Assembly: GCA_964016885.1 (NCBI GenBank)
Contig: CAXHJY010001360.1
Coordinates: forward strand, 1-50,547
Direction: 5' to 3'
DNA length: 50,547 nucleotides
Source of the DNA: Eledone cirrhosa
Lineage: Eukaryota
The notes beneath the pieces were generated by a model that saw nothing but the letters and a program-made list of their open reading frames with translations, was not told the origin of the DNA and did no database searches. Position numbers and translations under genes: made by a program. Shown one piece after another: positions 2,011 through 45,378 of the stretch (position 1 is the first letter of the stretch; every line of letters starts with the position of its first letter).

Positions 2011-2223
2011 TTCGTTTCTGAATTTGTTTAGCAAGATTCTTTATCTGAAATCGTGTGTTGAAACCGATATTGTTATACTTTGGGAGGGTCATGTTGCCAA
2101 TAAGAAACACACGCACCAGTTGCTTTCACTTCAATTTAATTTATTATATATTTATAAATTTACAAATTATAAATTTCTGGTTGGTTGGTTGTTCCACAAC
2201 CAGATAGTTGTTTATATATATAT

Positions 2224-2268
2224 AGTCATAGTTCTTTCGTCACACACTCTGTGACCTCTTCAGTGACT
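2224..2268 (-). ncRNA. Minimal type-I hammerhead ribozyme (mirror copy)
   Basis: Reverse complement of 2389-2433. Confidence 0.75.
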
Positions 2269-2388
2269 GGGGATTTCTTTCTTCGTTTCTGTGCCTTTCC
2301 TTTCTTCTATCCTACGCCATTTTGTTTTGAAACAAAATGGCGTAGGATAGAAGAAAGGAAAGGCACAGAAACGAAGAAAGAAATCCCC

Positions 2389-2433
2389 AGTCACTGAAGA
2401 GGTCACAGAGTGTGTGACGAAAGAACTATGACT
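2389..2433 (+). ncRNA. Minimal type-I hammerhead ribozyme
   Basis: AGTCA-CTGAAGA-G-GTCACA(gagtg)TGTGAC-GAAA-GAAC-TA-TGACT: stem I AGTCA/TGACT, intact CUGANGA and GAAA core, 6-bp stem II, vestigial stem III. Confidence 0.78.
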
Positions 2434-2593
2434 ATATATATATAAACAACTATCTGGTTGTGGAACCAACCAACCAACCCAGAAATTTATAAATTTGTAA
2501 ATTTATAAATATATAATAAATTAAATTGAAGTGAAAGCAACTGGTGCGTGTGTTTCTTATTGGCAACATGACCCTCCCAAAGTATAACAATAT

Positions 2594-5500
2594 ATATATA
2601 TATATATATGTATATGTATATATATATGTATATGTATATATATATGTATATATATATGTATATATATATGTATATATATATGTATATATATATGTATATA
2701 TATATATGTATATATATATGTATATATATATATGTATATATATATATGTATATATATATGTATATATATATGTATATATATATGTATATATATATGTATA
2801 TATATATGTATATATATATGTATGTATATATGTATGTATATATGTATATATTATGTATATATGTATATATATATGTATATATATATATGTGTATATATAT
2901 ATGTATATATATATATACATATATATATGTATATATATATATGTAATATATATATATGTATATATATATATATATATATGTATATATATATATATATATG
3001 TATATTATATATATACATATATATATGTATATGTATATATATATATATATGTATATATATATATACATATATATGATATGTATATGTATATATATATGTA
3101 TATATATATATATATGTATATATATATACATATATATATGTATATATATATATGTATATATATATATATATATGTATATATATATATATATATGTGTATA
3201 TATGTATATATATATATATATATATGTATATATGTATATATATATATATACATATATATATATATATACATATATATACATATATATATATATATACATA
3301 TATATATATACATATATATATATACATATATATATGTATATATATATATATGTATATATATATGTATATGTATATATATATGTATATGTATATATGTATA
3401 TATATATGTATATATATATATGTATATATATATATATGTATATATATATGCATATATATATATATGTATATATATATATATGTATATATATATATGTATA
3501 TATGTATATATATATATGTATATATATGTATATATATATATATGTATATATATATATGTATATATATATATATATATATATGTATATATATATATATGTA
3601 TATATATATATGTATATATATATATGTATATATATATATATGTATATATATATATGTATATATATATATATGTATATATATATATGTATATATATATATG
3701 TGTATATATATATGTGTATATATATATATGTATATGTATATGTATATATGTATATATATGTATATATATGTATATATGTATATGTATATGTATATATGTA
3801 TATATATGTATATATATATATATATGTATATATATATATATATGTATATATGTATATATATGTATATATGTATATATATATATATGTATATATATATATA
3901 TATGTATATATATATATATATATATGTATATATGTATATATATATATGTATATATATATATATATATGTATATATGTATATATATATATGTATATATATA
4001 TATATATATGTATATATGTATATATATATATGTATATATATATATATGTATATATATATATGTATATATATATATATGTATATATATATATGTATATATA
4101 TATATATGTATATATATATATGTATATATATATATATGTATATATATATATGTATATATATATATGTATATATATATATGTATATATATATATGTATATA
4201 TATATATGTATATATATATATGTATATATATATATGTATATATATATATGTGTATATATATATATGTATATATATATATATGTATATATATATATGTATA
4301 TATATATATGTATATGTATATATGTATATGTATATATGTATATGTATATATGTATATATATATATGTATATATATATGTATATATATGTATATATATATG
4401 TATATATATATGTATATATATAGTATATATATATATACATATATATGTATATATATATATGTATATATATATATGTATATATATATGTATATGTATATAT
4501 ACATATATATATGTAATATAATATATACATATATATATGTATATATGTATATATATATAGTATATATATATATATGTATATATATATATACATATATATA
4601 TGTATATATATGTATATATATATATGTATATATATATATGTATATATATATATGTATATATATGTATATATGTATATATATATATATATATATGTATATA
4701 TATGTATATATGTATATATATATATATATATGTATATATATGTATATATATATATATATGTATATATATATGTATATATGTATATATATATATGTATATA
4801 TATATGTATATATGTATATATATATATGTATATATATATATGTATATATATATATATATATATGTATATATATATATATGTATATATATATATATATATA
4901 TGTATATATATATATATGTATATATATATATGTATTTATATATATATATATATATATATATATATATGTATATATATATATATATATGTATATATATATA
5001 TATGTATATATATATATGTATTTATATATATATATATATATATATATATATACATATATATATATATATATATGTATATATATATATATGTATATATATA
5101 TATATATGTATATATATATATATATATGTATATATATATGTATATATGTATATATATATATGTATATATATATATATATATATATATATATATATATATA
5201 TGTATATATATATGTATATATGTATATATATATATGTATATATGTATATATATATATGTATATATATATATATATATGTGTATATATGTATATATGTATA
5301 TATATATATATATATATGTGTATATATGTATATATGTATATATATATATATATATATATATATACATATATATATGTATATATATATATATATATGTATA
5401 TATATATGTATATATATATATATATATGTATATATATATACATATATATTTACATATATATATATATATATATACATATATATATATATATATACATATA

Positions 5501-43722: not shown

Positions 43723-43798
43723 AATATATATATATATATATATATATATATTTATATAAATATATATATATATATATATAAATATATATATATCTATA

Positions 43799-44100
43799 TA
43801 TAAAGAAAAAGAGATGAAATCGAAAATGGAACTGGAGTCTTATTTTTTTAAAAATATATATATTTATTTGGTTCGTTTACCGGTTTCGCAGTTCTTCTGC
43901 TTTTCAAAAGGTGAGTTGAGATGGAGGGTCTGTGGTTTTTGTCACATCAGATGTAAAGGAACCAAATAAATATATATATTTAAAAAAAAATAAGACTCCA
44001 GTTGCATTTTCGATTTCATCTCTTTTTCTTTATACTTTCACTCGTGTAGGACACCTCGGTTATTTTTCATTTTGTACAAAAAACCTCACTTTCTAATATC
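43799..44100. mobile_element. Inverted-repeat element (arms 43799-43880 and 43953-44034) with decayed HHR at 43873-43911 (-)
   Basis: Minus strand cctt-TTGAAAA-GCAG(aagaa)CTGC-GAAAC-CG-GTA-aacg; the right arm starts GTA-AAGG, which restores stem I. Confidence 0.68.
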
Positions 44101-44370
44101 TCTCTCTCTCTATATATATATATATATATAAATATATATATATCTCTATATATATATATATATAAATATATATATATCTCTATATATATATATATATATC
44201 TATATATAAATATCTATATATCTATATATATATATATATATATATATATATATAAATATATATATATATAAATATAAATATATATATATATAAATATATA
44301 TATATATATATATATATATATAAATATATATATATATAAATATATATATATATATATATGTGAAATATAT

Positions 44371-44444
44371 ATATGCCCCCACACCTCCCACCGCAAGGTG
44401 GTCGTGGAGGTGCCACGGCAAAAAAGCACCCAGCCCACACTGTA
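44371..44444 (+). mobile_element. Tail-less internal fragment of the RTE-B 3' UTR
   Basis: Matches ~34217-34292 and the reverse complement of ~46220-46294. Confidence 0.75.
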
Positions 44445-44626
44445 TATATATATGTAAATATATAAATATATATATATATATATATATGTAAATATATAAA
44501 TATATATATATATATATATATATATGTAAATATATAAATATATATATATATATATATATATATGTAAATATATAAATATATATATATGTAAATATATATA
44601 TATATATAAATATATATATATATATG

Positions 44627-45378
44627 ATTAAGTTAAAAATGTACATCCACATATGTATACTGAAATACTAGTATGCATATGAATACACACACGTGTACAT
44701 ATGTAGATGTACCGAGTTTTCACTGGTCACTTTACTGTGAGTGTCCAGCTATTCTGTATGTAAACACACAGACAAACCGGTTTTTAGAGTCATACTGGTT
44801 TTTGAGGAAACACCTTTCCTCTATTCTCCAGAAAGCCAGACAAGGAATATTGGACTAGTTTCGATGAGTTACAAACGAAACGAAATTTAATTTCGTTTCG
44901 TTATTTGTTTTTATCGTCTCCGTTGAACCGGTACGTACTCACGCTCTATGCAAATTGGTCTGCCCACTACTAATTTTCATAGAAAAAGCATATAGCGATA
45001 TGTGCTTTCACGATTCTCTAGAGAGGCCGGAAGATAGGTAAATATTGCTGATAAGATGTAACAACATCGAAACTAGTCCAATATTCCTTGTCTGGCTTTC
45101 TGGAGAATAGAGGAAAGGTGTTTCCTCAAAAACCAGTATGACTCTAAAAACCGGTTTGTCTGTGTGTTTACATACAGAATAGCTGGACACTCACAGTAAA
45201 GTGACCAGTGAAAACTCGGTACATCTACATATGTACACGTGTGTGTATTCATATGCATACTAGTATTTCAGTATACATATGTGGATGTACATTTTTAACT
45301 TAATTGTTTAAGCGTCAGTCATACAAAAGTGAGTTACAAACGAAACGAAATTTAATTTCGTTTCGTTATTTGTTTTTA
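44627..45378. mobile_element. Retrozyme/pLTR-like element: inverted 240-bp arm (44627-44866) plus a 465-nt monomer with ~50-bp terminal direct repeat
   Basis: 44627-44866 is the reverse complement of 45065-45304; tgagttacaaacgaaacgaaatttaatttcgtttcgttatttgtttttat occurs at 44865 and 45330. Confidence 0.8.
45041..45085 (+). ncRNA. Minimal type-I hammerhead ribozyme (core CUGAUAA)
   Basis: AATATTG-CTGATAA-GATGT(aaca)ACATC-GAAAC-TA-GTC-CAATATT; perfect 7-bp stem I and a GUC cleavage triplet. Confidence 0.78.

Follow-up and report, generated by a model that had tools for sequence, protein, structure and literature searches.

How do fragments of a retroelement come to lie head to head inside a (TA)n microsatellite, with both of their 3′ ends facing outward? 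The question is raised by a 50,547-nucleotide stretch of Eledone cirrhosa DNA (contig CAXHJY010001360.1), which we analysed and refer to as the window. It is animal-type DNA dominated by (TA)n arrays, with several LINE copies that bear endonuclease and reverse transcriptase (RT) domains and many short hammerhead-bearing pieces. A first-pass annotation of the window had proposed that both nicked strands of the (TA)n target anneal to UAU sites in the element RNA and prime cDNA there.

Six composite insertions in (TA)n share a head-to-head arrangement

Self-BLAST and arm alignments within the window revealed inverted arms at six of six places. In all six insertions, the left piece is antisense, the right piece is sense, and the 3′ ends lie in (TA)n, as the first-pass annotation had described. 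Its statement that the 3′ ends face outward and fuse to (TA)n holds in general, except that the long end of one insertion (family D) meets (CT)n first. The insertions represent five families: A (2011-2593), B (15544-16060 and 32519-32600), C (21946-22140), D (43799-44100), and E (44627-45378).

In family A, the long arm (2011-2328, − strand) consists of the 3′ part of a pLTR and a tail (2011-2069) and includes a hammerhead at 2224-2268. The short arm (2331-2593, + strand) carries a hammerhead at 2389-2433 and ends in ACAATAT, which matches (TA)n over 4 nt. Aligned over 2070-2590, the arms differ by three one-base indels in approximately 259 bp. An ATG at 2092 opens a frame of 27 codons that crosses the short stop and continues to the long end, where the tail ends.

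The larger family B insertion joins a long arm with a tail at 15544-15677 (15544-15869, − strand) to a short arm (15870-16060, + strand) that stops at TTTTAT, a 3-nt match. The arm alignment across 15678-16060 has 192 columns and two differences, and the insertion is centred on the self-complementary word CATATATG within stem II of the hammerhead. The second insertion, 32519-32600, comprises two family B pieces without overlap: a 32-bp short-stop piece (32519-32550, − strand), whose register with (TA)n is off by one base, and a tail-end piece (32553-32600, + strand). About 87 nt of the element are absent between them. Family B also occurs as a solo antisense copy (32951-33164, − strand), which runs from the short stop through the whole hammerhead (33016-33164), and as a solo sense copy with a tail (36265-36589, + strand), in which the short-stop site is at 36454.

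The family C insertion has a short arm (21946-22003, − strand; stop TTCCTAT, 3-nt match) and a long, tailed arm (22005-22140, + strand) with a GAAAC..GTC half-hammerhead; the alignment within 21946-22062 has 58 columns and two differences. The left arm at 21946 shares both of its ends with a solo short arm at 31226-31285 (− strand). In family D, the short-stop arm (43799-43959, − strand; 4-nt TA match) reaches approximately 70 nt further 5′ than the right arm, sequence that includes a hammerhead-like motif and is missing from the long arm. The tail is present only in the long arm (43957-44100, + strand), the end of which meets (CT)n and then (TA)n. The aligned parts, 43799-43889 and 43954-44034, differ by four substitutions, with a spacer of approximately 70 nt between them.

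Family E combines a short arm (44627-44868, − strand; stop TTAAT/C, TA match of at most 2 nt) with a long piece (44865-45378, + strand) that contains a 465-bp unit, a hammerhead at 45041-45085, and a tail whose long end matches TA over 3 nt. The arms are identical at 236 of 238 positions (44631-44868 versus 45063-45300). The long piece also has approximately 190 nt that are missing from the short arm, which lacks both the 50-bp tandem end and body sequence. Family E alone has a partial, pseudo-LTR-like tandem, in the form of a 50-bp terminal direct repeat (44865-44914 and 45330-45379). It lacks a long open reading frame and is likely non-autonomous.

No RT or endonuclease open reading frame was found in any of the six insertions, and a coding body between the arms is likewise absent. 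Collectively, the six insertions are head-to-head, 5′-truncated fragments of terminal repeats from five families that are likely Penelope-like elements (PLEs). Endonuclease-bearing PLEs encode a telomerase-like RT together with a GIY-YIG endonuclease in a single ORF, for which these fragments are too truncated. At least seven single-arm PLE-like pieces lie in the same arrays (31226, 32951, 36265, 36890, 43670, 30531, and 42376), so the composite form is not obligatory.

Hammerhead motifs place the sense strand on the right

A motif scan identified full type I hammerhead motifs in both arms of family A and in the long piece of family E (+ strand). The latter also matched Rfam HH9 at 45030-45101 (E 1.7e-5), under the gathering score. 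The family B hammerhead has a core of CTGAAGA (33156-33150, − strand) and GAAA (~33036) flanking a stem II of approximately 110 nt; it is closed by stem I, and its fold has a z of −4.5. This stem II (within 33016-33164, − strand) is unusually long and holds the fold centre of the 15544 insertion. Families C and D have a 3′ half-motif alone, read by eye in C and found by the motif scan in D, and their strand calls are therefore weaker. Every hammerhead-based strand call, full or half, places the sense piece on the right. By these full motifs, the terminal repeats of A, E, and B contain the type I hammerhead motif that characterises PLEs. Many Rfam miRNA matches, all under the gathering score, were rejected as by-products of palindromes and (TA)n.

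Each family has two fixed 3′ ends

Every one of the five families has a shorter and a longer 3′ end, and the distance between them, which corresponds to the tail, is 59 bp in A, 134 bp in B, 78 bp in C, 57-66 bp in D, and approximately 74 bp in E. The recurrent stops reported in the first-pass annotation were borne out by the arm alignments: the short end of B recurs at 16060, 32519, and 32951, and that of C at 21946 and 31226. The long end of B recurs as well, at 15544, 32600, and 36589. Recurrence was seen for B and C within the window and for B also in reads, B being the one family examined outside the window. Because the short stop also limits the solo copies at 32951 and 31226, it behaves as a start site and not as a second-strand stop. 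Folds of the five stop regions showed no shared structure among the stops, and a family B motif scan of metagenome contigs found nothing.

Independent reads and contigs contain the family B short stop

Four sequencing runs were mapped to the family B sense copy (36236-36594): three of the 20 runs that contain part of the query and one run with the same species label. X22 consists of raw reduced-representation reads from another study with the same species label as the best-matching run, X4 is organism B, and X6 is organism C; X1 is possibly the source sample and hence not independent. Figures for loose ends refer to 20 of 170. No RNA run was listed among those containing the query, a result without bearing on expression.

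In X22, 420 reads exit at 36454 into (AT)n with an agreement of 0.77, against a depth of approximately 1055 in the preceding bin; as these are reduced-representation reads, the 420 may represent few loci. Contigs from X4 and X6, two other organisms, end at 36454 as well. The B short stop is present in three window copies, in X22 reads, and in X4 and X6 contigs, and is not an assembly artefact; its support in independent reads speaks against chimeric fold-back. Upstream letters of the solo copy at 32951-33164 are matched by an organism C contig, and this copy probably extends further.

X22 also contains a joint between 36319 and 36456 on opposite strands (72 reads); the first base of its sense piece lies 2 nt past the short stop. 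All 72 reads have one start, so the joint is probably one locus. The depth step at 36320, from which its sense is read, suggests that it is head-to-head; the joint has the pattern of twin priming. In X6, a pair of contigs has its start at 36459, and one contig has another fold centre at the hammerhead. In X1, seven contigs near 36566-36589 fuse the B long end to (CA)n, not (TA)n, and three read TTTTAT/GTATA, in which the B short stop is followed by a G without an in-register match. The fold centre of the 15544 insertion and the other fold centres of the window are absent among the joints listed. Reads also pile up at 36391 (228 reads) and at 36414 (807 reads); we did not treat these positions as stops, as both create AATT and have low-agreement tails. 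They likely mark a library restriction site, judging by the enzyme that this word implies, and could also reflect other subfamilies.

TA microhomology at the stops exceeds chance but does not choose the site

An in-register (TA)n match of 3-4 nt is present at five of the six family-sites with known element continuation. Counted by junction, seven of nine have the match and two have no in-register homology. The exceptions are the E short stop (TTAAT/CATATA, at most 2 nt) and 32519, which is one base out of register at the same site. Five matches in six have a P of 5e-5 with uniform breakpoints and of 6e-5, 3e-4, and 8e-3 under three local or AT-biased nulls, in a post hoc test of six sites that include, of the long ends, that of E, and whose junctions could be shifted by slippage of the array. 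Microhomology with TA exceeds the chance level.

Family B contains 20 TA-register words of at least 3 nt, and among the loose ends listed, from three organisms, it has one (TA)n fusion site. The word therefore does not choose the site, and TAT is neither sufficient nor universal at junctions. The 3-4 matching bases probably help to attach the arm. The proposal that short arms fuse to (TA)n through TAT fits most sites and fails at these two junctions, and the stronger claim of dependence on UAU annealing was overstated, given the single listed fusion site, the two unmatched junctions, and the seven (CA)n contigs.

Mutually exclusive arms point to two priming events

In family D, in family E, and at 32519-32600, the arms are mutually exclusive in part or do not overlap. 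They cannot derive from one self-copying cDNA, and two primed cDNAs are needed; probably, every arm had a primer of its own. On this comparison of arms, the evidence from three insertions argues against the published self-priming model. The first-pass view that both target ends prime is supported by these insertions and by the read-supported joint 2 nt past the short stop. That annotation had named twin priming or fold-back as the integration mode: the two primers are supported, but strict L1 twin priming does not on its own account for arms that overlap by 58-259 bp.

We consider it probable that double priming, with base pairing that sets the register, produced these insertions. By analogy with published PLE biochemistry, a GIY-YIG nickase would cut both AT-rich strands, and RT would start internally on the RNA, at one edge of the tail or the other. 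Each nicked (TA)n strand would then serve as the primer for its own cDNA, begun at either of two fixed start sites on the element RNA. We suggest that RNA or protein would pick the start site, and that the (TA)n primer end would pair over 3-4 bases with a UAU or AUAU word, setting the exact register in most events. The two cDNAs would then be joined in the middle. The overlapping arms of A, B, C, D, and E (58-259 bp) would require either that the template was present twice, as a tandem RNA or in a pair of RNPs (dual priming), or that a single RNA was copied with strand displacement.

The main rival, which overlaps with the double-priming account, holds that RT has two fixed start sites and that base pairing is irrelevant, the TA words reflecting AT-rich sequence, a nick preference, or later slippage. 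Internal starts without homology to the target have been reported (PMC11167929), and the 32519 junction and the three X1 contigs use the B stop without an in-register match, as does the E short stop at its own site. Five of six sites nevertheless match, at P 8e-3 under the most lenient null, and we regard this reading as possible but clearly the less probable of the two. Fold-back self-priming is less likely again. Here, the cDNA primed at the long end would snap back at a palindrome and copy itself, and on reaching the short stop the copy would jump across to the opposite end of the target. This model has already been proposed for head-to-head inversions of PLEs (PMC3846280), and it fits A, B (15544), and C equally well: all three are near-perfect nested palindromes with a shared centre, the B centre lies on a natural self-complementary word, and the arms of the 15544 insertion are 99% alike, versus approximately 95% to other window copies. 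It cannot yield D, E, or 32519-32600, in which both arms contain sequence missing from the partner, and the short stop bounds the solo copies at 32951 and 31226 in the manner of a start site.

Two further readings carry very little weight. The short arms could be deletions that arose after insertion and removed the sequence from an internal TA word to the neighbouring (TA)n array. TA microhomology would then follow automatically, and one would expect a long palindrome within a microsatellite to be unstable. However, family B offers 20 TA words and yet one (TA)n fusion site among those listed from three organisms, and the pattern matches the known PLE tail; deletion is therefore highly improbable. 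An assembly or library artefact from chimeric fold-back reads, which palindromes within low-complexity DNA might bring to mind, is scarcely credible: the arms differ by two to four changes each, their ends are asymmetric and fall at sites that recur, and independent runs contain the same stop as well as further junctions between opposite strands.

A stronger version of double priming would be programmed: a dimeric enzyme would nick both (TA)n strands, each primer would pair with a UAU at a dedicated start site, and the cDNAs would be spliced head to head. We advance this version only tentatively. If true, it would derive the PLE inverted repeat, the one-sided tail, and the microsatellite bias from one mechanism and would replace self-priming. 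How PLE inverted repeats and one-sided tails originate is an acknowledged open question: PMC3846280 proposed self-priming, and PMC8557442 calls for an in vitro system. Short high-copy insertions offer a simple genomic test, in which mutually exclusive arms demand two primings and the (TA)n register probes pairing.

Other elements in the window

A PLE 3′ part at 36890-38369 (+ strand) has a decayed hammerhead near 38300 and ends in AAATAT against (TA)n; a second copy of its 3′ end, with the same stop, is at 43670-43727. Within it, a GIY-YIG-like frame (36977-37360) belongs to a family other than A-E and was assigned with very high confidence by Atlas. This fragment had no Pfam match, and no longer homologue was found at E 1e-10. 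Just upstream, in the neighbouring frame, is a cysteine-rich motif that we take to be a Neptune-like linker. Single-arm PLE-like pieces in (TA)n at 30531-30978 (+ strand) and 42376-43000 (− strand) have hammerhead cores at 30886-30932 and ~42470-42497.

In a LINE at 10531-15398 (+ strand), with (TA)n on both sides, a 1076-aa endonuclease-RT frame (12093-15323) runs without interruption, and a frame upstream of it has a CCCH-like motif. Four related LINE copies (17213-21630, 24184-27824, 38415-41950, and 45997-49250), presumably RTE-like, have (CAT)n or (ATG)n tails that meet (TA)n; in one of them, a frame of 1075 aa (38774-42001, − strand) is open and includes a PHD-like finger. Their 3′ part and tail are shared by a SINE-like repeat of approximately 320 bp, present in three copies (28312-28628, 42005-42336, and 45595-45926). 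One LINE copy has three near-identical 166-bp tandem units (21002-21502) at its 5′ end. The (TA)n arrays also hold short, unique inserts at 29505-29690 and 31420-31540 with largely open frames, which are possibly the ends of further elements.

Comparison with known systems

The structures, the fixed stops, and the (TA)n bias are already known, and A-E are new families of a known kind. An inverted pLTR with an optional tail was described for Pen2a_Av, for which self-priming was put forward to explain the inversions (PMC3846280). PMC8557442 gives the same scheme for all endonuclease-bearing PLEs (its Fig. 2). The insertions in the window share with these elements the head-to-head inverted 5′-truncated copy, the one-arm tail, and the type I hammerhead in the pLTR. 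Also shared are palindromes at the inverted junction, the absence of a discernible target-site duplication in microsatellites, an ORF start that runs into the tail (family A), and possibly the partial tandem, seen in family E alone. They differ in that their tails are 57-134 bp, versus 30-40 bp published, in the absence of a coding body between the arms, and in the 3-4 nt TA match at the stops, which is not reported in PMC3846280 or in the available text of PMC8557442. As context, PMC13282606 describes 31 recently active Penelope-like families in Octopus vulgaris.

The first-pass annotation had regarded the fixed internal stops and the (TA)n dependence as new. The stops correspond to the known PLE tail and its two RT start sites (PMC3846280, PMC11167929). 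For the Poseidon element of Anolis carolinensis, PAc, the one PLE with published biochemistry, PMC11167929 reports that both strands are nicked and extended and that two internal RT starts bound the tail, and predicts a dimer. PAc resembles the present families in these two fixed starts, in the nicking and extension of both strands that we propose here, and in its AT-rich target; the PAc starts were reported to share no homology with the target and are located in an AC-rich stem-loop, whereas the stops here lie in A/U words that match the target. As for the target, PMC8557442 names (TA)n as the favoured target of Naiads, notes a microsatellite bias in Neptune, and describes complex inverted insertions with a tail, all as seen here. 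Naiads have an N-terminal endonuclease and lack canonical hammerheads, whereas A, B, and E have hammerhead motifs. PMC8557442 also describes endonuclease-less PLEs as attaching through complementary telomeric repeats.

Family E, whose short unit is non-coding and has both a type I hammerhead and a terminal direct repeat, also resembles the non-LTR retrozymes of bioRxiv 10.64898/2026.07.22.740005, and was likely moved by a PLE. It differs in having 1.1 units and one hammerhead, whereas those elements are defined there by at least two tandem units, each with a type I hammerhead, and in having an inverted arm.

Twin and dual priming were defined for L1 (PMC2837659), where the second target strand likewise primes by short homology inside the RNA and yields an inverted piece. 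The L1 first primer uses the poly(A) tail, and an internal deletion marks the L1 pieces; in the present families, both start sites are fixed and internal, and in five of six insertions the arms share an overlap of up to 259 bp. Non-overlapping inverted pieces, the L1 twin-priming trait, occur at 32519-32600 and at the 36319-36456 joint, and A, B, C, D, and E overlap by 58-259 bp. A search of titles and abstract openings, mostly in open-access literature, found no earlier proposal of double priming, twin priming, or TA pairing for PLEs. Set against these systems, what is added refines the mechanism and does not amount to a new system: the arms supply sequence evidence that two primers were used, and the junctions a small, testable microhomology signal.
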